A stretch of 64,000 nt of DNA from the IMG/VR virus record IMGVR_UViG_2721755662_000004; one strand, 5' to 3'. Source of the stretch: a virus (Duplodnaviria > Heunggongvirae > Uroviricota > Caudoviricetes). Position numbers and translations under genes: made by a program. Below the pieces are notes generated by a model. It did not search any database, was not told the DNA's origin, and saw nothing but the letters and a program-made list of their open reading frames with translations. The first letter of the stretch is position 1; each line of letters starts with the position of its first letter. Positions 755-55,372 of the stretch are shown in pieces.

Positions 755-1432
755 TCACCATTGCTCCCCAAATACAAAACCAATTTCAGCCAGTGCCTCG
801 TCCATTTTTTCGATGAACTCCGGCACCATCTCGTCAAAACTCGCCATGTACTTTTCATTCCGCTCAATCACGACATAATGCAGGCCTTCACGCTTCATGC
901 GCGGGTCATAGTTGGCAAAGTACCAGGCATCTTTTCGCGTCACCCACATGCTGTACTGCACCTGGGCCATGTAAGCCGATTTTATTGCCTCGAAACCACC
1001 GAGCCGGAATTTCATGAAATCCCGGGAGGTAAACGGGCATTTCAGTTCAAGGCCGTTGCCGTCACTGCATAAACCATCGGGAGAGCAAGCGGTGCGCATA
1101 CTTTCGTCGCGATAGATGATCGGGGATTCAGTAACATTCACGCCGGAAGTGAACTCAAAGAGGGCTCTGGCGTCGTTCTCGTACTGTTTTCCCCAGGCCA
1201 GCGCTTTAGCGTTAACTTCCGGAGCCACACCGGTGCAAACCTCAGCCAGCAGGGTGTGGAAGTAGGACATTTTCATGTCAGGCCATTTCTTTCCTGAGCG
1301 GGGTTTTGCTATCACGTTGTGAACTTCTGAAGCGGTGATGACGCCGAGCCGTAATTTGTGCCACGCATCATCCCCCTGTTCGACAGCTCTCACGTCGATC
1401 CCTGTACGTTGCAGGATAATGTCCGGTGTCAT
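755..1432 (-). CDS. exo: Lambda-type exonuclease (Red alpha)
   Basis: 225 aa, near-identical over its length to lambda Exo as recalled ([43 protein letters not shown]...). Confidence 0.95.
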
Positions 1433-2214
1433 GCTGCTACCTTCTGCTCTGTGACTTTCTGTTTCAGGAATCCAAGAACCTTCACAGCTTCAGCCTGTGT
1501 TAGTTCTGAAGATGTGTAAATGTTGCGGCGAAAAATCTGGGAACAGAGCGGCAACAGGTCGTCATCCCACGTTTTTTCCATGGAAGTAAGAAGGGCGTTA
1601 ATTTCCGACATGGTTTCTTCGTTAACCGGGGTGATGTCGCGTTCCGGCTGACGTTCTGTAGTATATGCAGTATTTTCGACAATACGCTCGGCTTCATCCT
1701 TGTCATAGATGCCAGCAAATCCGAAGGCCAGGCGAGCACACTGAATCATGGCTTTGTGCCGTAACATCCGTTTGGGATGCGACTGCCACGGTCCGGTGAT
1801 TTCTCTGCCTTCGCGGGTTTTGAATGGTGCGCGGCGACATTCATCCATCCACTCGGTAACGCAGATCGGGTGATTGCGATCTTTGCGGTAAATCCGGCAT
1901 GTACAGGACTCATTGTCCTGCTCAAAGTCCATGCCATCAAACTGCTGGTTTTCATTGATAATGCGGGACCAGCCATCAACGCCAACCACCGGAACGATGC
2001 CGTTCTGCTTGTCAGGGAAGGCGTAAATTTCTTTCGTCCAGGGATTAAGGCCGTACTGGTTGGCGACGATCAACAATGCGATAAATTGCGCATCGCTGGC
2101 ATCACCTTTAAATGCCGTCTGGCGAAGAGTGGTGATTAGTTCCTGTGGGTCGACAGAATCCATGCCGACACGTTCAGCCAGCTTCCCTGCCAGCGTTGCG
2201 AGTGCTGTACTCAT
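1429..2214 (-). CDS. bet: Recombination protein Bet (Red beta, single-strand annealing)
   Basis: 261 aa, lambda Bet-like ([67 protein letters not shown]); overlaps exo start. Confidence 0.95.
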
Positions 2215-2219
2215 CCGTT

Positions 2220-2516
2220 TTATACCTCTGAATCAATATTAATTTGGTGACGGGCGATGGTTTCAGCCATGTAGCGGATGTGTTCTGCCATGCGTTCCTG
2301 AAAATCGACATCGTCATCAAATGCACGGGAAATAGCTTTTTTGCTGGCCCCGTGACGTTGCAGATTATCGATGCATAGCGATTCAAACAGGTGTTGGGGC
2401 AGACCTTTTTCCAGGTCGTCTGCCAGCTCAGCTTCAGTTTCTTCACGGGCAATTTGCTGGTAGTGTCGTGCCCATGACTGCTCTTCAATGCGATCGGGGA
2501 TAAGCCAGGCATTCAT
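2220..2516 (-). CDS. gam: Gam, RecBCD inhibitor
   Basis: 98 aa; matches lambda Gam C-terminal core ([44 protein letters not shown]...DIDSEV). Confidence 0.9.
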
Positions 2517-4585
2517 GATTTATCACCTTCGAAATTTTCAAGCCTGTTGGCAATCATGATGGCGATATCAGGGATTGCTGGCGCTGTGGCTATACATGCG
2601 GGGTTGGCGCACAAACCATAGACGGCGGCAATCACGAGCTGTCTTTTCCAGTCGAGAGTTACTGGCTCAGAATTGGCGTCATCGCCGGACGTATCACTGC
2701 CTGGCTCGTTCTGAACAACGGTTTCGCCCTCCTGAGCGGCATCAACAGAGTTTTCCTGAATGATCTTCTCCTCAGTTTGTGCTGAGTCTTCTCCATCAGC
2801 GGCGTCATTTTCTCCAAAAGTTTCAGCGTAAGTTTCATCTCCCATTACTGGACCACAGTCAGGGCAATGGCCGCCACCGTTCTGACTGCATGTGGTGCAA
2901 ACCTTTTCCACTTCCTGTTGCATTACTGGCCCTGGCTGTTGCTCTTCTGGCCCGTTTTGTTGCGTATCCGGGCTGTTTTGTCCCGCTTCTGGGGCAATTT
3001 GTTCCACTTTGGGCTGATTCTGGTCCTCAGTGTCGCGAGTCTGGATCCCCTTCACCCACTTCGGATCAGCAGGGTTACTGATGCCTTCAACGAATTCTCC
3101 ACGCGAGGCAGCCAGTAATTTGTCGGCATCGACTGGATTTTTTGGGGGGATGTTTTCCCTGGCTTTATTGAGTTCCTCCCTCAGTTCCTGGTATTTCGTT
3201 TCTACAGATGAGACATTTTCCAGTGATTGCGTGTCCTCATTATGTTTAACTGGAATTTCTTCCACTGATTCAGGCGCTGCCTGTTCATTAGCCATTGTGT
3301 CCGATGTTTGTTGCTTTTCTTCATCGCCATGTTTTCCTTCTGCTGTTCCGCGCTGCGGCATCGGTGCTGATGAGCGACCGCAGGCAATTTCCACGATTTC
3401 CGGATCCGGGTTAGCGTGATCGGTTTCGGTCAACACTTTGTTGAGATATTCAGTCACGCGTGCCGGGATGGCCTCAATGCCGATTGGTGCTTCTTTCACG
3501 GAAGCCACCACAATGGCGCGGGAATAATCCAGCCCACCGGGCATGGCGATAAATTTGTCGCGAAAAACAGAAAAGGGCGGCTTATTCTCTGACACGATTT
3601 CTTCAACGCGTTTTGCGTGTGCTGGGTGCAGGTTATAAATATCCACATCCATTGAACGGGCCAGAACGCCGGTGGCTACATCTCGTGCGAGTGATGTCTT
3701 ATCATGTTTGAATCCTTCACCACGATCGGTAATATTTCCGCCGCCAGCGTTAGCACCGGAAGGCGTACGGGTAATGCCTGAAACATAATTTCCGTTCTGC
3801 CATTCTTTTGTCAGCAGGCCCTGATCAAGGTAGTCAGTTTTCATCCAGGTGGAAATGAACTTGTCGAATTCAGCCGGGCTGATGCGATGATTTGCAGAGT
3901 GGGGGAATGCTTTCCCTACAGATTCAGCCAGGCGACTAAGGTGATAGTTCGTCAGTTTATCCAGTTCATGATGCGCGGCGCGCACAGCAGTAAGCAGGCT
4001 CTGAAGGTAACTGTCCTCTGTGTCCATCTCCATACGGATCACGTTATTGCGTTGTTCTGGTGTGGCATGATGCCGGTATTTTCCATCTTCATCTTTGCTG
4101 AATAAGAAGAGGTGAAGGAAGCGATGAGTAAGGCTCAGAGTGGCGACGGGAATTTCACACTCAGAACAGTCATCGTCGCTGTCCGGGGATTCGCTTTTCT
4201 CCACATCATCCGGAATAGTTCCGTCCAGGTTATCGTTGTCATCGCCAGCAGTTGTGGCATCTTCACCGTTGATGTTGTCATCGAAGGGGATAGCCATCAT
4301 GGTGATGCCATCGTTACCGCCTTTTTCATAGCGGTTGCAGAATTCAGTATCAAACACGCCTTCCGGTGGAAGGTCATTCACGACGGGGAAATTTACGCGA
4401 ACGGGTTTTTTGAAATCATCCTCGTCGTAGCCTGCATCGTCCATGGCTGCAATGCAGCGGGAAACTGCGACAGAAAGTTTTCTGGCCTCGGTCCAGAAAA
4501 AACCGCCTTTGATGCCAAGGCGTTTTCTGACTTTATCGTTTTTTGCTTCGCAGTGTAGTGCAAAAGTCTGTTTATCAGCGCTCAT
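2513..4585 (-). CDS. Large acidic hypothetical protein with C-x2-C-x7-C-x2-C motif, in kil/cIII position
   Basis: 690-aa ORF translationally coupled to gam; long Asp/Glu-rich tracts; [16 protein letters not shown] motif; hydrophobic C-terminal tail; no ATPase or nuclease motif seen. Confidence 0.7.
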
Positions 4586-4692: not shown

Positions 4693-5079
4693 TCAGTGGA
4701 AGGTTGCCTGGTTTGCTGTTTTGTGAGTTGTTTTTCCCTTTTCGTGCTGGCATTCAGGGCAGTCGCACTCAGAATTTTCTCTTGCAAACTCAAGAGCCTG
4801 TGCAAGTGTATGGATTTGTTGTACTCCAATGTTGCTTCTGACAACTTCACGTGCAGCATGAATATATGGGCTTGGTGTTTTGCCATTTAACCCACATAAA
4901 ACAAAACGACTGTCCTTATATTCGTTATTTCCAACTTCTGTAAGCACTGAAAAAGAAAATACAAAGTCGATTTTGTATTCTTTGCATATTTTACTGATGC
5001 GTTCTGCAATTTCTTTGAGTTCATTTATTGCATCAGGACTGGTTTTGGAAAATATTTCATTTTGCGCAAGTTCTTTCAT
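4693..5079 (-). CDS. Hypothetical Cys-motif protein (AT-rich accessory gene)
   Basis: 128-aa ORF in AT-rich stretch; C-terminal ECDCPECQHEKGK motif. Confidence 0.45.
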   Translation of the reverse strand: MKELAQNEIFSKTSPDAINELKEIAERISKICKEYKIDFVFSFSVLTEVGNNEYKDSRFVLCGLNGKTPSPYIHAAREVVRSNIGVQQIHTLAQALEFARENSECDCPECQHEKGKTTHKTANQATFH

Positions 5080-5162: not shown

Positions 5163-5402
5163 TCACAACGACGCTGCTTTTACGGGTAAGCCATCGCGCC
5201 CGATGAAAACTTTAATCATGCAGTCGGTAATGCATGTTTTTGTTGTGAAGTTACGAATATAGAGTTTTCTCTTTTCAATATTGTTTGCTGAAGCGATATA
5301 TGTCCGACCTTCATGAAGAACATAATCGCCAGGCGTCACGCACTGACGTGGTATTTCATCAGTTCCGAAGTGATGAGCAATCATAATTATCTCCATTTTC
5401 AC
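5163..5402 (-). CDS. Hypothetical protein
   Basis: 79-aa ORF, AT-rich, same strand as PL operon. Confidence 0.35.
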
Positions 5403-6805: not shown

Positions 6806-7111
6806 TCAATCGTAATAAGCCGGAATTGATTTTCCGCGTTGTTTCTGGCGGCCTGAGCAAGTCACACCCATTTCACTGCGTGGTTTGCGGTAGTAAATAC
6901 GGTTCTGTTTACTCTCGACTTCTTCTGCCTTCTTGCAGCGAAGGCTTCCGAGTGATACTGCTTTGTCTGCTCCGACGCAACCAGAGATCTTTAGCGCAAT
7001 CTTCCGTGTCAGTCTTTCACTACTGCGCCGCTCTGCAATAAGTTCTTCCCTGCGAGCTTTATAGCGGCTTTTTGCCGTACCTTTGGATTCTTTCCAGATT
7101 ATGGTTACCAT
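6806..7111 (-). CDS. N: Antitermination protein N (phage 21 type)
   Basis: From ATG at 7111 with GGAG SD: MVTIIWKESKGTAKSRYKARREELIAERR..., C-terminus GVTCSGRQKQRGKSIP resembles lambda N C-terminus GITCSGRQKIKGKSIP. Confidence 0.85.
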   Translation of the reverse strand: MVTIIWKESKGTAKSRYKARREELIAERRSSERLTRKIALKISGCVGADKAVSLGSLRCKKAEEVESKQNRIYYRKPRSEMGVTCSGRQKQRGKSIPAYYD

Positions 7112-7221
7112 GATGGTCTCCTTTAAGTGGCTTTGGTGTATGACGCGTCGAGGTGTTTTTCTTCTCGATCGCGGCCTTGCAACTGAAATTCGCGTCATCC
7201 CCAAAACCACTTAGATTTTGG

Positions 7222-47017: not shown

Positions 47018-50000
47018 ATGGCTTATTCCGATGAACAGCGCCCTGAAGCGCAATTTGGCAACCAGAGCCGCAACAGCCTGAACATTCAGCAGCCGGGAGA
47101 GACTGACAGCTATGATGTGTTTTTCTCCGATCCCAATCGCTGGAAGGACAACAGCACGTCGTTCAGCCTGGGCGATGTATTGCCAACTATGGGGAAAGGT
47201 GTCGCCCAGTCCGTCCGGGGGACAGGGGAAATGGCCCGTGGACTCGGTGATGCGATGATTCAGAGCCCGGTAAAAACAGGGGTACGTATTTTAAATGAGT
47301 TCAGCCGTATGGGGCTGCCGGGAGTCGCAACTGTTCAGGATATTTTTGTCGGTGGCAGCAAGGGGGCGGATGAGGTCATCGACACTCTGCCTGATGGAAA
47401 AAATGCGGTTACTGATACTGTCGGTAAAGGTCTGAAGGTCACAGGCAAGGCCGTCAGTGGCGGCGCTAAAGCCTCGGATGAATGGCTGACTGGCAAGATG
47501 TCGCCGGGGGCGCAGCGGGCGCTGAATACACCGATGACTGAAGGATATGATGATTCAGCGGTCTGGGTAGCGAAAGGGGTTAACCTGATTGGTGCGCTTG
47601 TACCGGATATGGTTGCAGGCGGTGTGACTAAAAAGCTGGGTGATGTCACTCTGCGAAAAGTGCTGACCGCCGGGCTGGAGAAAAAATACATCGCGGCAGG
47701 GATGCAGCCGGAAAGAGCCACAGCACTGGCAGCCGAAGCTGTCGATAAAAAAATGCCGGATTTTTTCCAGGCAGGCCTGATCACCCATTCCACTGTCAGT
47801 GCGCAAGGGCGGAGTGCAATGGCAGCGGCAGATGCTGTTCTTAACGCGGATTATTCTGAGCTGGCGAAGTCACCGAAATTTCAGCAGACCTTTTTGTCAA
47901 TTGATGCAGATCCGCAGCACGCGCAGCTTACTGACCGCCAGAAAATGGACCTGGCAAAAGAGCGTGTTGCCGATGAGGTGCGTGCGCAGCTGGCAACCGA
48001 TCCTGAATTGCTGGCTGTGAATGCCATGGCGGCAAAACTGGGCGATGCTCAGTTGCTTAATCTGGCGATGCGGGGCACGGCGAAGACCGTTAAAAGCGGC
48101 ATTGTCAGAAATGCCACGGAACAGGGGACGATTAATGCGGCGCAGGGTGGCTATTCACGCTATCAGGAAAACACGGCATTGCGTGAGACCGCCGGAATGG
48201 ATGTGTCACCGTGGGAGGGCGTGGCTGACGCAACGATCGAAGGTGCAGCCCTTGGTGCTGCAATGGGGGCACCATTCGGTGCGGCTGCCGGATATCGTGG
48301 AAAACGTCAGGCGGCAGATGAAGCAGCCATGCGTGAGGCTGAAAGCGTTCCTCAGGACGAATCGGCTCCGCAACCCGAACCGGTTGATCCGGTGGCACAG
48401 CATCGTGAATCTATGCAGGGGATGAATCGCGAGCAGCTTCTGGAACAGTATGCTGATGCGGATATGGCACATGAGGGAGACACGTCTGCCGTTCATCGCC
48501 GGGAAGCCGCCAGCCAGCTGTTGAATGAACTGGATGAACAGGCGAAGCGACAGGCGGTGATGGATGAGCTGAAGGCGAAGCCGCGCCCTGAACTGCTTGA
48601 GGAATACCGAAAACTCAGCCAGAAGGAAGGGCGTACTGATACTGAAGAGCAGCAGTTACAGGCAATACGTGATGTGCTTCGCCCTCAGCGGGAGGCCAGA
48701 CCGGAGGCACAGCCACAGCCGGAAAATGCGGATGATGGCGACGGGAGTATTTACCCGACGGTGCGGTTCCGCGATCCGGATGAAGTTCGTATTGAAATTA
48801 ACGAGAGTGGTGCGTCCAGACCAGCAGAACGCATTGAAAAGGTGCGTCCGGACAACCGTTATTTCACGGATGAAAAAAGTGCTCTGGGGAGCGACGTTTT
48901 CCGCAATGCCAGCGCCACCGGCCTGAAACCGTCCGTAGTGAAGAAAGGCGAGAATCAGTATGCCGTTGAAATGGATAATCCTGCGTTCTCTGAAGATGTG
49001 GCAACGGAGACCATTAACACTCTGGCTGACGGAGAGCGTATTACTGATGCTGATCCGATGGAACAGCCCGCGTTCATGCGTGACCCGCGATTCCGTGGTT
49101 TTACGGGGGATGATACAGAAGTGCAGGCCCGTCTTGCTCGTGGCAACGCGCCGACGGCGGAAGAACTGGTGCGTTCCCAGATGGCTGAAGGTGATGCCGG
49201 TCCGACAGCACAGGAGTTAACTGAGCGTCCACGCCTTCCCGCTCCCGGCGATATTCATCCCGGACAGGGATATCCGTTACCAGGAGAAGTAGCGCGTACG
49301 CCGGATGAAAATCAGGCCGGACGTGGTGGTCGTTTTACCACAACCGGTGAGGTGAAGGGCCAGAGTTTCCAGAAAGGACGTGCGCAGGCACCGGAAAATG
49401 CCGCTGGTCGCCAGGGGGAAATACTGGAGGGCGAAACAGTTCGTCGTGGTCTGCCGTCACCGGATGAGCAGAACGCCACAGCACCAGTGCGTGAAGGTCT
49501 TCCTGCACCTGAAAGTCAGCGTGGGGTTGATATGCCACAGCCTGAATCACTCCCTCGTATGGTTCGTGACTCCCTTCCGGAACTGGCACAGCAGGCAGAA
49601 GCACGCAGACAGACCGGGGATAATCGCCAGACCATAACCGATGTTCCGGATACTGAGGTGCCGGTGCCGGTAGATAAACCGAGCACTCACCAGCAGGCGC
49701 GTGGTGCGAAAATTGAAGACTTTGGCGAGGAGATTAAGGGCGCGGCAAAACACCGTTATGCGCAGCTTGCTGAAGCTATGGGTAAAACGCTGGAGGATGG
49801 GGAGTACGCGACACAACCACTGAGCAAACTGTTTCCAAAGCCGGATTATGCCCGTCTGGAAAAAGAAGGTGTGGATAGTGACACGCTGGCAATGATGGCG
49901 TTGTATCGCAGTGAAATTCCCACCAGAACAAGCCGTAACATGCAGAAATGGATCAGCATTGTTAAAAGCGGTCGCGAAGCTACTGCCGGTATGCTGGAGG

Positions 50001-53000
50001 GGAAAATTCCGGCAGCGAAACTGGCTGATATGATGGACAGTAAGCCGGGGTTACGGAGCATGTCGGATACCTGGAAACTGCTCCGTACGCTTTCTGCATT
50101 GCAGATTGATAAAGCATCCGGCTATCGTGTCAGGTCCGGTGTTTATTCGTTTGTCGGGGGAAAACGTTACGATCCGCCGCAAATGATGTATTCGCTTCGT
50201 GATAGCAAGGGGCGCGACCTCTTTTTCTCGGAAAGCCGGGATGAGTTACTGAAAAAGGCGAAAGCATATTTCGATGAACAAGGCTCCAGAGAAAGGGAAA
50301 CGCCAGCAACCTCTGCTGATGACAGAATAACCTTTGACGTGTACCGGCATAAGGCCAGTGGCGACATTTTTATCGGTTATGGCAAAAACAGGCAGAAACT
50401 GAAGGGCGGTTTTGAGTCTGCCCGTGATGCACATGATTATGTGCGCACACATCGTGATGAGCTGGTTAATCAGGTGAAGGCGCTGCGTGAAGTCTCGCGT
50501 GAGGAGCAGCGTAACGCCACCAACCGCGATCGTACCGGACCAGAACGCCGCAAGGGGGATGTTTCGCCGGAGCAGTTCAGTGATGCGTTTGGTTTTCGTG
50601 GTGTGCAGTTTGGTAATTATGTGGAAAGTCCGCGTCGTCAGGCTGATTTGAACCGGGCTTATGACTCGCTGCATGACCTGGCTGACGTGCTGAACGTGCC
50701 GACAAAAGCGCTTTCTCTGAACGGTCGTCTTGGGCTTGCTTTTGGTGCCCGTGGTAAGGGTAAGGCGGCGGCACACTATGAGCCGGGTGAGGTGGCAATC
50801 AACCTGACAAAAGGTAACGGACCGGGGGCGCTGGCCCACGAATGGTTCCATTCACTGGATAATTATTTTGGTCGTTATGATGTTTCCACTGACGGGAAGA
50901 TCACGTCAGGTGGCGACTATATGACGGAAGCACAGCGTGCCGGGCGCGTATTTAAAGACGGCAGGTATGTTGATGCGGAATATCCGGTACGTCAGGAGGT
51001 TTACGACGCGTTTAAAGGCGTGATGAAAGCCATTAACAGCAGTGACATGTTGCGTCGTTCTGAACGCCTGGATGGCGTTCGTTCAAAACCGTACTGGTCA
51101 ACGGATGTTGAAATGGCGGCGCGAGCCTTTGAGCGTTATGTTCAGGATAAAGCGCGTATGGCTGGCGTGGAGAATGATTATCTGGTCAATATCCGTAAGG
51201 CGGATGACCATGGACAGCCGGACACCTACGCTTATCCGACGAATGCAGAACTGGATGGCGGTATTCGTGAGGCATTCGATCACTTGTTCCGAACACTGAA
51301 AACCCGTGAGACGGACAAGGGAGTTGCGTTTTATTCCCGTAAGGGCGTGACCCGCACACCTGAAGGCAATCTGATTTCGGATGTTAACCGCAGTGCGGAA
51401 GCCAAAGGCAGTCCGGTCCCGCAGGTTGAAGCTGTTGCCCGTGGCGTGATTAGTGGCATTAAGGACAGTGACCTGAAGGTCCGCGTGGTGAAGTCACAGA
51501 AAGAGGCTGAAGCACTGGCGGGTGAATCATTCGACGGTTACGGCAAGGTGCACGCGTTCTATCGTCCGGATAAACGTGAAATTGTCCTGGTGGCGGATAA
51601 CATCCCTGACGGGCGGACCGTTCGCGAGAAGTTACGTCACGAGATTATTCACCATGCAATGGAGCATGTAGTCACGCCAGCGGAATATCAGACGATTATT
51701 AAGACCGTGCTGAAAACCCGTGACAGTGATAACGCCACCATCCGTGAAGCCTGGCGTAAGGTTGATGCGTCTTATGGTAAGGAATCACCGGAAGTGCAGG
51801 CGGGTGAATTTCTGGCGCATATGGCAGAGAAGCAGCCGATTAAATTCGTGGCGGCATGGGAGCGTGTTGTTGCCCTGGTCAAAGGGGTACTGCGTCGTAC
51901 GGGGTTACTGAAGCCGACGGAACTGAACGATATCAGACTTGTTCGCGAAACTATTCGCACGTTAGGCCAGCGTGTGCGGGAAGGTTACACGCCGCGTGAG
52001 GATGGCGCGGACGCATCGTCTCAGTACTCCCGTAGCGGTAAGCCTGATCCGTTCAAAGTGCCGGAAGGTGAGGGCGAGCGTTATCGTGATGACCTTGCCA
52101 GAATGATGAAGTCTCTGCGCACCACAGATTTAACGGTAAACATCGGGCGTACGCCGCCGGTATTGCGTCACCTTGGCGCACCAGATTTGCCGCTGGTTAT
52201 CTCCCGCGACACTGTGCGTAAGGCCACCAATGGAGTGAAACATGTGGTGCCGATGGATGTTATCGAGAGACTACCGGAACTGATGCACGATCCGGATGCA
52301 ATTTACCGTTCCGCGACAGAAAGAAATGCGGTTGTGATGCTGCTTGATGCCATGGATAAAAATGGTGATCCTGTAGTGTCAGCGGTACACATGAAGGCTG
52401 TCCGGTCGCGCCTGGAAATCAACAAGGTAGCTTCGGTTTACGGTACGGAAGGAGGAATGAATAAGGCAAATAGTCTGGATAAAGCCGGATTAACGCTTTA
52501 CCGGAAGAAAAAATTAAGCCGCGATAACCTTCTGCACAGAGGGCTTCAATTGCCCAAAGGGGAACATTCTTATCGCGGCTCTGTAGATAAAATACTCTAT
52601 CCTGAAGATATTCGCAAGGGGCCGTATTACTCCCGCACCAGCAGTCTGACGCCGGAAGAGACAATTGCATCCCGTTTTGTTCGCCAGATGCAGGATAAAT
52701 TCCAGGTGCTGAAGGCGGTGCAGGAGAATATCCGTAAAACTGGCGGAAAAATAGATGACAGCAATAACGCCTATATGGCTGAAGAACTCTTCCACGGGAA
52801 GGCGGAAAACGACCTGAACGTAATGAAGGAGCGCTACGTTCAGCCGCTGGCCAAATTGCTGGCGGACTACAAAATTGCGCAGGCCGATCTGGATGAGTAC
52901 CTCTACGCCCGTCACGCGCCGGAACGTAACGCGCATATTGCGAAAATCAACCCGAAAATGCCGGACGGCGGTTCGGGGATGACCAACGCGGAAGCGGCGG

Positions 53001-55372
53001 AAATCATGCAGCGTGTGCGTAACAGCGGCAAACAGGCACAGTATGACCGTCTGGCAGGGATTATTGACGATATGCTGGCCCGTCGCCGTGAGATTATCCG
53101 TGAGGCAGGACTGGAAGAGAGCGGCGTGGTGGATGCCTGGCAGAAAGCCTACCGTTACTACGTCCCCCTGAAAGGGCAGGATGTTGACGGTGTGGTGTCA
53201 CTGCCACGTACAGGCAAGGGATTCACCATCGGCGGGCGTGAAAGTAAGCAGGCCATGGGGCGTGCATCCCGCGCACAGTCTCCTTCCACTCAGGCGATAC
53301 AGGATTTGAGTGAATCGCTGATCCGCAATCGCAAAAATGAAGTGGGTAACGCCTTCCTGAAACTGGTACAGGATAATCCCGACAAGGATTACTGGCAGGT
53401 ATTCACTGATGACAGACCGGATACAATGCGTGTGATTGCAGAGCGCAAGGACCAGGAAACTGGTGAAACCATTCGCGAAGTTGTCGAGCGCCCTGTGCCG
53501 ATGGCAATGATGGCGGATCGCTACTTCACCACCAAAAAGGACGGCAAAACTTACTACATTAAACTTCATGATCCGCGCCTGATGCGTGCGATGAAGAACA
53601 TGGGGCCGGAAACCAGTAACGCCGTAATCCGTACGCTGGGGAAAGTTAACCGCTTCCTGGCAACGGTGAACACGTCGTATAACCCGGAATTTCTGGTCAG
53701 TAACTTCATCCGTGACGTGCAGACTGCGGTGATGAACCTGAAGGCTGAGCAGGGAAGAAGCGACGGCAAACTGAAAGGGCTGGATAACTTATCCGCGCTG
53801 GCTGTGGTGAAAGACAGCCGTTCCGCCATGTCAGCCGTATACGCAAGTCTGCGGGGTAAAACCCTCACGGGCAAAGGCGCACAGTGGCAGAAAGTGTGGA
53901 AAGAGTTTGTTGAGGACGGAGGTAAAACCGGCTGGTTTAACATGGGTGACCTTGAGGGCCAGCAGAAGGAAATGGATCGCCTTGTGTCGCTGGCGAAGGG
54001 CGGATGGAAAGGCCAGAGTATCGGTGCATGGCATTCGTTCCTGAACCTGGTCGAGGATGCCAACGGCGCGGTTGAAAACGCTCTGCGTCTTTCTGCCTAT
54101 AAACACGCCCGTGATGCCGGTTTGTCACGCCAGCAGGCGGCGTCTCTTGCCAAAAACATGACGGTGAACTTTAACCGTCGTGGTGAGCAGGGGATGCTGA
54201 TGAACTCGCTGTACATGTTTGCCAACGCCAGCATTCAGGGGACCGCAAACCTGGTGAGAACGCTCGGACATCTTAATGGCGACGGGCCGTTACTGGAGCG
54301 CCTTCGCTGGAAGAATCTCAATGTACCGCAGAAAATCGTGCTTGCAGCTGTGGGAGCGGGTTATCTGCTTGGCTCGCTTAACCGCAGTGTGGCGGGTGAG
54401 GATGATGACGGGGTTAACTGGTACGACAAAGTACCGTCTCATGTGAAAGAGCGTAACCTCGTCATCATGAAATCGATGTTCGGGGGCAAGGCCGGTGAGT
54501 ACTGGAGTATTCCTCTGCCTTACGGGTACAACGTGTTCTTCCTGCTTGGTCATACAGCTGAAGGTGTGGCAGCGGGCGACCTGACTGCTTCACGTGCTGC
54601 CGGTAATGTTGTCGGCGGTATCCTGGGGGCATTCAGCCCGATCGGCAGCGAGATGTCGGAAACGTTGTCGGGGGCATTGCTGAAAAATGCAGCACCGACA
54701 ATTCTGCGTCCGTTTGCGAATCTTGCCATGAACGAAAACTTCATGGGGGCGCAGATTTACCAGGAGAACATGCCGTTTGGTACACCAAAACCTGACAGCC
54801 AGCTGGGAAGACGTTCAACGCCAGAAGCGTACAAGGCGTTTGCATTCTGGCTGAATGCGTTCTCAGGTGGCAGCCAGTATCGTCCCGGCGCGGTGGATAT
54901 CACACCGGAATCGCTGAAATTCTGGATTGACTATATCTCCGGAGGGACAGGGCGCTTCATTTCCAAAACCACGGATGCGGCGGTGAAATCGCTGAATGGT
55001 ATTGATATACCGGAACAGCAGGTGCCCTTCCTGGGGAAAATTTCGGGTGAGGTGATGCCGTATGCAGACCAGCAGAAGATGTACGACCGGATGACAGAGG
55101 TTGCGCAGTATCACGCAGAGCTGAAGAGTCTAACCGGTGCAGAAAGAACGGCGTTCATTGACGAGAACAACGGAAAATTGTTGATGAACGGGCTTATGCA
55201 GGATACCCGGAAGAGACTGAAGGATTTGCGCAAACAGCGCGATGCCATTTATGCCGACAGTTCTCTCAGTCTGGCGCAGCAGGCGGCGATGGTGAAATCG
55301 GTAGAGCGGGATATGAAGGTTGCCGTGGATCGGTTTAACCGCGAGTACAACAAAAAAGTGGGAGTGGATTAA
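47018..55372 (+). CDS. Giant 2784-aa protein with zincin-like HExxH motif (polyvalent-type virion protein)
   Basis: Single uninterrupted ORF of 8.35 kb; internal ALAHEWFHSLDNYFG motif; multi-segment composition. Confidence 0.8.
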   Translation: MAYSDEQRPEAQFGNQSRNSLNIQQPGETDSYDVFFSDPNRWKDNSTSFSLGDVLPTMGKGVAQSVRGTGEMARGLGDAMIQSPVKTGVRILNEFSRMGLPGVATVQDIFVGGSKGADEVIDTLPDGKNAVTDTVGKGLKVTGKAVSGGAKASDEWLTGKMSPGAQRALNTPMTEGYDDSAVWVAKGVNLIGALVPDMVAGGVTKKLGDVTLRKVLTAGLEKKYIAAGMQPERATALAAEAVDKKMPDFFQAGLITHSTVSAQGRSAMAAADAVLNADYSELAKSPKFQQTFLSIDADPQHAQLTDRQKMDLAKERVADEVRAQLATDPELLAVNAMAAKLGDAQLLNLAMRGTAKTVKSGIVRNATEQGTINAAQGGYSRYQENTALRETAGMDVSPWEGVADATIEGAALGAAMGAPFGAAAGYRGKRQAADEAAMREAESVPQDESAPQPEPVDPVAQHRESMQGMNREQLLEQYADADMAHEGDTSAVHRREAASQLLNELDEQAKRQAVMDELKAKPRPELLEEYRKLSQKEGRTDTEEQQLQAIRDVLRPQREARPEAQPQPENADDGDGSIYPTVRFRDPDEVRIEINESGASRPAERIEKVRPDNRYFTDEKSALGSDVFRNASATGLKPSVVKKGENQYAVEMDNPAFSEDVATETINTLADGERITDADPMEQPAFMRDPRFRGFTGDDTEVQARLARGNAPTAEELVRSQMAEGDAGPTAQELTERPRLPAPGDIHPGQGYPLPGEVARTPDENQAGRGGRFTTTGEVKGQSFQKGRAQAPENAAGRQGEILEGETVRRGLPSPDEQNATAPVREGLPAPESQRGVDMPQPESLPRMVRDSLPELAQQAEARRQTGDNRQTITDVPDTEVPVPVDKPSTHQQARGAKIEDFGEEIKGAAKHRYAQLAEAMGKTLEDGEYATQPLSKLFPKPDYARLEKEGVDSDTLAMMALYRSEIPTRTSRNMQKWISIVKSGREATAGMLEGKIPAAKLADMMDSKPGLRSMSDTWKLLRTLSALQIDKASGYRVRSGVYSFVGGKRYDPPQMMYSLRDSKGRDLFFSESRDELLKKAKAYFDEQGSRERETPATSADDRITFDVYRHKASGDIFIGYGKNRQKLKGGFESARDAHDYVRTHRDELVNQVKALREVSREEQRNATNRDRTGPERRKGDVSPEQFSDAFGFRGVQFGNYVESPRRQADLNRAYDSLHDLADVLNVPTKALSLNGRLGLAFGARGKGKAAAHYEPGEVAINLTKGNGPGALAHEWFHSLDNYFGRYDVSTDGKITSGGDYMTEAQRAGRVFKDGRYVDAEYPVRQEVYDAFKGVMKAINSSDMLRRSERLDGVRSKPYWSTDVEMAARAFERYVQDKARMAGVENDYLVNIRKADDHGQPDTYAYPTNAELDGGIREAFDHLFRTLKTRETDKGVAFYSRKGVTRTPEGNLISDVNRSAEAKGSPVPQVEAVARGVISGIKDSDLKVRVVKSQKEAEALAGESFDGYGKVHAFYRPDKREIVLVADNIPDGRTVREKLRHEIIHHAMEHVVTPAEYQTIIKTVLKTRDSDNATIREAWRKVDASYGKESPEVQAGEFLAHMAEKQPIKFVAAWERVVALVKGVLRRTGLLKPTELNDIRLVRETIRTLGQRVREGYTPREDGADASSQYSRSGKPDPFKVPEGEGERYRDDLARMMKSLRTTDLTVNIGRTPPVLRHLGAPDLPLVISRDTVRKATNGVKHVVPMDVIERLPELMHDPDAIYRSATERNAVVMLLDAMDKNGDPVVSAVHMKAVRSRLEINKVASVYGTEGGMNKANSLDKAGLTLYRKKKLSRDNLLHRGLQLPKGEHSYRGSVDKILYPEDIRKGPYYSRTSSLTPEETIASRFVRQMQDKFQVLKAVQENIRKTGGKIDDSNNAYMAEELFHGKAENDLNVMKERYVQPLAKLLADYKIAQADLDEYLYARHAPERNAHIAKINPKMPDGGSGMTNAEAAEIMQRVRNSGKQAQYDRLAGIIDDMLARRREIIREAGLEESGVVDAWQKAYRYYVPLKGQDVDGVVSLPRTGKGFTIGGRESKQAMGRASRAQSPSTQAIQDLSESLIRNRKNEVGNAFLKLVQDNPDKDYWQVFTDDRPDTMRVIAERKDQETGETIREVVERPVPMAMMADRYFTTKKDGKTYYIKLHDPRLMRAMKNMGPETSNAVIRTLGKVNRFLATVNTSYNPEFLVSNFIRDVQTAVMNLKAEQGRSDGKLKGLDNLSALAVVKDSRSAMSAVYASLRGKTLTGKGAQWQKVWKEFVEDGGKTGWFNMGDLEGQQKEMDRLVSLAKGGWKGQSIGAWHSFLNLVEDANGAVENALRLSAYKHARDAGLSRQQAASLAKNMTVNFNRRGEQGMLMNSLYMFANASIQGTANLVRTLGHLNGDGPLLERLRWKNLNVPQKIVLAAVGAGYLLGSLNRSVAGEDDDGVNWYDKVPSHVKERNLVIMKSMFGGKAGEYWSIPLPYGYNVFFLLGHTAEGVAAGDLTASRAAGNVVGGILGAFSPIGSEMSETLSGALLKNAAPTILRPFANLAMNENFMGAQIYQENMPFGTPKPDSQLGRRSTPEAYKAFAFWLNAFSGGSQYRPGAVDITPESLKFWIDYISGGTGRFISKTTDAAVKSLNGIDIPEQQVPFLGKISGEVMPYADQQKMYDRMTEVAQYHAELKSLTGAERTAFIDENNGKLLMNGLMQDTRKRLKDLRKQRDAIYADSSLSLAQQAAMVKSVERDMKVAVDRFNREYNKKVGVD

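Follow-up and report, generated by a model that had tools for sequence, protein, structure and literature searches.

A gene at positions 2513-4585 of a 64,000-nucleotide stretch of Caudoviricetes DNA (hereafter the window; IMG/VR virus record IMGVR_UViG_2721755662_000004) encodes a 690-amino-acid (aa) protein that resembles the N-terminal region of RecE, or exonuclease VIII, but lacks its nuclease domain. The protein ends instead in a short conserved tail, and its gene is coupled to the Red genes gam, bet and exo. This tail-bearing, nuclease-less type adds a new variant to a family that is known but whose function is unexplained. We infer, with a probability of roughly one in two, that the protein serves phage double-strand-end recombination as a non-catalytic accessory or adaptor.

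The open reading frame (ORF) is real, intact and under purifying selection. It starts with an ATG on the minus strand, with an AGAGG Shine-Dalgarno sequence ~10 nt upstream, and its stop codon overlaps the gam start codon (ATGA overlap, TCATGAATG). About 110 protein clusters (90% identity) of 680-700 aa span the ORF end to end at 77-99% identity, and the whole-gene ratio of non-synonymous to synonymous substitution rates (dN/dS) is 0.22-0.30. Among the closest 120 homologues, 116 keep the C-x2-C-x7-C-x2-C motif and 110 keep the tail. The conserved length, the selection and the retention of both motif and tail rule out a truncation relic and an assembly artefact alike. A frameshift or fusion artefact, which the initial annotation had named as an outcome that would overturn its reading, is excluded by the conserved length in those clusters and by the dN/dS. 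Much of what that annotation had described from the sequence holds: the 690-aa ORF, its coupling to gam in the early-left operon, the strong acidity (isoelectric point 4.56, net charge -59), the Cys motif (aa 563-577, found by regular expression), the hydrophobic C-terminus (best 19-residue Kyte-Doolittle mean 1.75, aa 650-668) and the lack of a recognizable catalytic motif.

The protein is not an orphan, as matches in Pfam, PHROGs, NCBIfam and BLASTP searches show. PF06630 ('Enterobacterial exodeoxyribonuclease VIII') matched aa 55-197 (E=1.8e-12; score 48 bits, cut-off 25). The phrog_607 match covered aa 1-687, yet only profile positions 1-617 of 883. Likewise, the NCBIfam equivalog NF007259 was matched over profile positions 1-598 of 877 only, with 740 bits, below the cut-off of 1269, as against 1830 bits for K-12 RecE. 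In BLASTP, a 1049-aa RecE-like protein, whose gene has recT downstream, was matched through its first 585 residues at 87% identity (612 aligned columns). Identity to the K-12 Rac RecE (866 aa) was 51%, with RecE residues ~43-560 aligned with aa ~51-600, and a core at aa 256-412 was ~90% identical between the two. By regular expression, the Cys motif is also present in K-12 RecE (aa 517, CNACGQTGGDNCPDC) and in the 1049-aa relative. From these alignments we conclude that residues 1 to ~590, Cys motif included, share common ancestry with the RecE/exonuclease VIII N-terminal region.

The RecE nuclease domain comprises residues 564-866, and its structure has been solved by crystallography (PMC11611040). 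As judged by profile and pairwise comparison, this PD-(D/E)XK domain is absent from the 690-aa protein. In a three-way alignment with two full-length RecE proteins, homology ended in an acidic linker just ahead of the start of the nuclease domain. PF12684, which represents the nuclease of the longer RecE subtype and is present in close full-length relatives, was not among the Pfam matches of the 690-aa protein, where PF06630 was the only hit. A local phmmer search with both nuclease domains as queries gave no true match in it, and a PDB sequence search with the 690-aa protein returned no chain at E<=1. The variant P0117 tracks K-12 RecE up to the nuclease-domain boundary, beyond which its sequence is that of the tail.

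Genes almost identical to this one are carried by Escherichia phages PhiR5_2 (99% identity) and phiSTEC1589-Stx1c (94.5%) and by Shigella phages 75/02 Stx and POCJ13 (90%). Of 5426 complete E. coli genomes, 98 have such a gene. All are labelled exodeoxyribonuclease VIII or RecE family in the phage and E. coli records. For the 690-aa protein such labels are misleading, since it has a conserved tail where the nuclease domain would be. A functional exonuclease VIII is favoured by the wording of these records ('exodeoxyribonuclease VIII' or 'RecE family exodeoxyribonuclease'); on the alignments above, this reading is extremely improbable and effectively ruled out.

The N-terminal RecE region is called functionally unknown in reviews (PMC11611040, PMC11610958). 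The initial annotation's term 'uncharacterised' does not hold in the sense of a protein without known relatives (PF06630, phrog_607, NF007259, RecE). It had also named homology to a well-characterised family as a result that would count against its proposal. Such homology exists over ~590 residues but falls on the part of RecE without an assigned function. Our literature search found no function described for the RecE N-terminal region or YdfE, and no partner for the RecE N-terminal region. The N-terminal ~600 residues of RecE have been dispensable in decades of recombination and recombineering work. The one clue to their role is that linear-linear recombination is greatly improved with full-length compared with truncated RecE, which is the basis of direct cloning.

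The 47 residues of the tail are near-invariant among homologues of 77-99% identity, and the flanking acidic linkers vary freely. Among the 87 family representatives of at least 400 aa used for all C-terminus counts, the tail module terminates 20-23 distant members, relatives 30-45% identical of the YdfE type. The tail of the 690-aa protein aligns with 24 tail-class members under the consensus xQQLTIAALQGLCANPA…(D/E)(I/L)PxMA, always at the extreme C-terminus and behind a disordered linker. A membrane anchor was considered for this hydrophobic segment and is unlikely: hydrophobicity is not conserved in relatives, most of which have a best Kyte-Doolittle 19-mer mean of 0.5-1.3 against 1.75 here, and the segment contains conserved N, P and D/E residues. 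Several tail-class variants (P0113, P0117, P0122, P0130 and P0134; e.g. L061:5001-7055) carry an additional acidic tip and end in …DDEYMPNF or …DDEHIPDF. The 690-aa protein has no such tip and ends in …NFEGDKS. The C-terminal tip of the single-stranded DNA-binding protein SSB (…DDDIPF) is a docking peptide for DNA-metabolism proteins, and we take the acidic tip of these variants to resemble it.

The protein is predicted to be built like beads on a string. Four acidic disordered linkers separate the N-domain, the large helical core, the helical segment that follows it, the probable zinc ribbon and the tail. The features are as follows, with the AlphaFold2 (AF2) confidence score given as pLDDT (predicted local distance difference test):

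2513-4585, minus strand: whole ORF, nuclease-less RecE-N/YdfE-family protein, 690 aa (ORF list, PF06630, phrog_607, BLASTP, dN/dS)
4286-4585, minus strand: N-terminal alpha/beta domain, aa 1-100 (AF2 pLDDT 85-98; dN/dS 0.10-0.26; overlaps the start of the PF06630 match)
4154-4285, minus strand: acidic disordered linker 1, aa 101-144, 41% D+E, net charge -17 (pLDDT <50 at aa 103-138; dN/dS up to 1.35)
3341-4153, minus strand: large, mostly helical domain, aa 145-415 (pLDDT mostly >90)
3215-3340, minus strand: acidic disordered linker 2, aa 416-457, net charge -9 (pLDDT <50; dN/dS 0.77)
3047-3214, minus strand: conserved helical segment, aa 458-513, KYQELR…DPKW (helices 458-477 and 487-494, pLDDT 84-88)
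2906-3046, minus strand: disordered linker 3, aa 514-560, Q/E/P-rich (pLDDT <50; lengths vary among homologues)
2855-2899, minus strand: C-x2-C-x7-C-x2-C motif, probable zinc ribbon, aa 563-577 (regular expression; pLDDT ~60)
2657-2815, minus strand: acidic disordered linker 4, aa 591-643, net charge -15 (pLDDT <50; dN/dS 0.37-0.65; RecE homology ends here)
2516-2656, minus strand: conserved C-terminal helical tail, aa 644-690 (helices 646-684, pLDDT 50-73; takes the place of the nuclease domain)

The long Asp/Glu tracts described in the initial annotation exist, but they are the four predicted disordered linkers (net -17, -9, -8 and -15). The folded modules are close to neutrality (net -1 to -4). 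The family-defining core (aa 251-415) lies inside the helical domain. Its motifs RTxSGxNAGGGxxTDR, DFDIY, PGxLDYSRA and TExDH are all found at aa 273-390 (TETDH here), and none of the motif columns varies when the core is aligned across 14 sequences. The core domain, which was modeled with high confidence, had no structural match in PDB or in the viral structures of BFVD. The helical segment at aa 458-513 is also conserved in K-12 RecE. All four cysteines of the C-x2-C-x7-C-x2-C motif are invariant in aligned close homologues (77-99% identity), and the motif is present in only 7 of the 87 distant representatives. This probable zinc ribbon was modeled with isolated beta bridges, and Pfam zinc-ribbon models matched weakly (E 0.25-0.43, homologue P0121). 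A second CxxC pair (DDDCSECE, aa 140-143, nt 4157-4168) lies in linker 1; C140 and C143 are invariant in 12 aligned homologues, in which the surrounding linker varies.

We estimated selection with the Nei-Gojobori method, pairwise between homologues and block by block. The folded blocks had dN/dS values of 0.05-0.2 and the acidic linkers 0.4-1.35. In the tail, 10 synonymous and 3-4 non-synonymous changes gave a dN/dS of 0.07-0.09. The helical segment (aa 458-513) had dN/dS of 0.05-0.15 in three of four pairs, the fourth being uninformative with 0.5 synonymous changes. Block-wise dS ranged from 0 to 1.4, being 0 in some blocks and 0.5-1.4 in adjoining ones. This pattern indicates repeated intragenic recombination, or mosaicism, with breakpoints near the disordered linkers.

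We also determined how widely the family occurs and how its members end. HMMER, run exhaustively against 1.84 billion representative proteins, returned only 208 relatives. When species-representative genomes were scanned with a degenerate motif, 51 loci were recovered, of which ~47 belong to Enterobacteriaceae and close relatives. The family is essentially confined to Enterobacteriaceae prophages. Besides the tail, several other C-termini are present. Approximately 23-26 of the 87 representatives end in the PD-(D/E)XK exonuclease, with recT next wherever the flank is visible. Fourteen end in a DEDDh 3'-5' exonuclease (PF16473, E ~1e-66), with xis/int directly downstream, and two are direct RecT fusions. 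A fourth C-terminal domain was found in eight. It showed sub-threshold similarity to Pfam Rad52_Rad22 in 6 of 7 members (best E=0.003) and may represent a Rad52-like, unrecognised annealase. PHROGs labels this domain only 'exonuclease' (phrog_2489, phrog_7838), and PDB sequence and profile searches with it returned nothing. The domain (…KKSLTDAxKKALSxLGFxADIxxGLYD…) is carried by P0127, P0142, P0177, P0190, P0200, P0224, P0258 and L043. Natural deletion derivatives also occur. In P0124 (703 aa), the RecE N-region is joined, inside the zinc motif, straight to RecT sequence. Another is a shortened form of 474 aa, encoded upstream of gam in certain E. coli and Shigella flexneri genomes (L011, L051). 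One RecE-like subgroup (e.g. P0132, P0136) does not have the core motifs that are otherwise invariant.

The genes around the ORF in the window, with the Pfam families assigned in homologous loci, are the following:

6806-7210, upstream of the ORF: N-like antiterminator
5163-5402, upstream of the ORF: kil (phrog_294, E=1e-37)
4693-5079, minus strand: 128-aa ORF (phrog_2016, unknown function, E=1.9e-78)
2220-2516, minus strand: gam, coupled through the ATGA overlap (PF06064 in homologous loci)
1429-2214, minus strand: bet, Red-beta/RecT-family annealase (PF03837 in homologous loci)
755-1432, minus strand: exo, lambda exonuclease, YqaJ family (PF09588 in homologous loci)

RecE-N/YdfE genes lie late in the early-left operon of enterobacterial lambdoid prophages, between kil/dicB and xis/int, and this is true of our ORF. 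The initial annotation had placed the gene in the slot of kil and cIII. Since kil is present upstream, the gene has been added between kil with the 128-aa ORF on one side and gam on the other, and has taken the place of neither kil nor cIII. No recT lies directly downstream; the annealase Bet is set apart by gam and has its own exonuclease. The order gene-gam-bet-exo is kept at 99%, 94%, 90%, 79% and 65% identity. Escherichia-type members of the tail class (PF06630 N-region, zinc motif and tail) were always followed by gam-bet-exo in the window, four phages, E. coli chromosomes, P0117 (79% identity) and P0121 (65%). In the P0121 locus, the four genes stand in a different, YdaS/YdaT-type backbone. 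YdfE-type tail genes have small ORFs and xis/int downstream, and no phage recombinase is adjacent. The small ORFs are heterogeneous, and a search for a conserved partner gene among those behind tail-class genes found none. The 128-aa ORF lies in a low-GC patch (0.38-0.42 against ~0.50 around it), and ends in a Cys-rich sequence (ENSECDCPECQHEKG). In every window-type locus it is found immediately upstream of the RecE-N gene.

We compared the protein with four known systems. K-12 Rac RecE shares with it the overall identity and the more conserved core described above, the KYQELR…DPKW segment, the Cys motif and the early-left operon position after kil. They differ at the C-terminus and downstream: RecE has the nuclease followed by recT, whereas the 690-aa protein has the 47-aa tail followed by gam-bet-exo. 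The second system is YdfE. The ydfE gene of the K-12 Qin prophage is a pseudogene truncated by IS2, and a direct comparison of K-12 YdfE with the 690-aa protein gave no significant match. The link runs only through P0181, a complete YdfE-type protein of 627 aa with precomputed Pfam assignments PF27430 (YdfE_N) and PF27432 (YdfE_C). The N-terminus of P0181 aligns with the Qin pseudogene (E=1e-12), and in BLASTP it matches aa 145-680 of the 690-aa protein (E=7e-41), tail included. YdfE-type proteins share the helical domain, the core motifs, the tail and a comparable position as last gene before xis/int in the early-left operon, but they have another N-terminal region, no zinc-ribbon motif and no adjacent recombination genes.

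The third group consists of RecE-N proteins with the DEDDh domain (~825 aa; PF06630 and PF16473) in Enterobacter, Citrobacter and Kluyvera prophages. These share the N-domain, core and operon position and have a catalytic C-terminal domain (PF16473) where the 690-aa protein has only the tail. Finally, Ocr, ArdA and lambda Gam are folded DNA mimics that display their charge on a rigid surface. Like the 690-aa protein, they are strongly acidic early phage proteins. However, the charge of the 690-aa protein sits in four predicted disordered, fast-evolving linkers, and its near-neutral folded modules present no DNA-like acidic array. PDB and BFVD structure searches gave no sequence or fold similarity to these mimics.

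An accessory or adaptor role in double-strand-end recombination is suggested by three observations. The N-region has repeatedly been joined to exonucleases of two unrelated folds, and perhaps to an annealase as well, the four-gene arrangement with Red is stable, and the single known phenotype of the homologous part of RecE concerns linear-end recombination. In relatives, the N-terminal region is covalently joined to a 5'-3' PD-(D/E)XK exonuclease (RecE, followed by RecT), a DEDDh exonuclease or a possible Rad52-like annealase. In this phage, Exo and Bet would provide the enzymes in trans and Gam would block RecBCD. The conserved tail would be the contact, or docking, point for a phage or host partner. 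The expected outcome would be more efficient recombination between linear DNA ends, as with full-length RecE. A bolder version, which we put forward only tentatively, is that the RecE-N/YdfE region forms an autonomous recombination-hub module of a previously undescribed fold, which enterobacterial prophages would couple to interchangeable DNA-end enzymes either covalently or, in this phage, non-covalently via the conserved GLCANP tail.

The main rival explanation is that the gene encodes an early protein that acts on the host by itself, whether for takeover, in the cell cycle, in replication or against defences, and that the nuclease fusions of relatives are incidental. Its function would then lie in the conserved N-domain and core, the linkers might mimic nucleic acids electrostatically and the tail might attach to a host protein. 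The position among kil and gam in the early-left operon is consistent with this, as is the occurrence of YdfE-type core-and-tail relatives without a phage recombinase alongside. A core ~90% identical in proteins otherwise ~50% identical would fit a conserved host target, and its invariant polar residues (D287, R288, Y317, D353, Y354, S355, R356, E387, D389, H390) could form an active or binding site, although the core motifs are missing in the subgroup of P0132 and P0136. The net charge also fits. On this charge and the position among early anti-host genes the initial annotation had based its proposal of a DNA-mimic-like host-takeover or anti-defence factor; an acidic early protein it is, but little support is left for the mimic, because the charge lies in disordered linkers that evolve almost neutrally, unlike the folded DNA mimics. 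That the region has been fused again and again to DNA-end enzymes of three or four kinds is hard to put down to chance, and alternative C-terminal domains that are nucleases point to recombination rather than defence evasion. There was also no match in PADLOC, which covers defence and not anti-defence. We regard a host-directed function as doubtful, if still the most serious competitor to an accessory role in recombination.

Another possibility is that the gene is a remnant, left when a lambda Red cassette (gam-bet-exo) replaced recT and the 3' part of recE encoding the nuclease, so that a 5' fragment with a fortuitous C-terminus and no function remained. The break in P0117 exactly at the nuclease-domain boundary, the block-wise mosaic divergence, the 474-aa versions upstream of gam and the RecE-N to RecT deletion fusion in P0124 are in keeping with such an event. 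Conversely, all folded blocks and the tail are under purifying selection, the length is kept in ~110 clusters down to 65-77% identity, and translation of the gene is coupled to that of gam. Nor is the tail a product of chance, since it ends 20-23 distant family members. Selection and tail conservation largely refute the remnant explanation, which is very improbable and effectively ruled out.

Several other elements of the window were recorded alongside this gene. All of the RNA matches are Rfam matches above the gathering score. Two tandem sets of c4-a1b1, isrK and C4 antisense RNA (RF03163, RF01394, RF01695) lie ~1.6 kb apart on the plus strand at 15542-15740 and 17127-17325. A sok antitoxin RNA (13503-13677, plus strand) scored 110 bits, and the small RNA (sRNA) STnc100 (20467-20672, plus strand; 165 bits) is located just upstream of a 636-aa ORF. 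Two copies of sRNA-Xcc1 (59696-59785 and 60579-60664, minus strand) are found near the right end of the window. The late region contains a single 2784-aa ORF (47018-55372, plus strand).

The 690-aa protein is a natural separation of function, in which the RecE N-terminal region occurs as a stand-alone, selected protein beside a complete Red system, and its role thereby becomes testable. If the hub reading is true, the protein would be a fourth Red-type component that directs Exo and Bet or a host factor to double-strand ends and promotes end-to-end recombination. Hundreds of 'exodeoxyribonuclease VIII' database entries are without any nuclease domain. The combination of one conserved region with swappable DNA-end enzymes is a guide to annotating the early regions of prophages, including those of Stx-converting phages. 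The gene is a real and fairly common prophage gene that has been mis-annotated as an enzyme, and it provides a handle on what the N-terminal 600 residues of RecE do.

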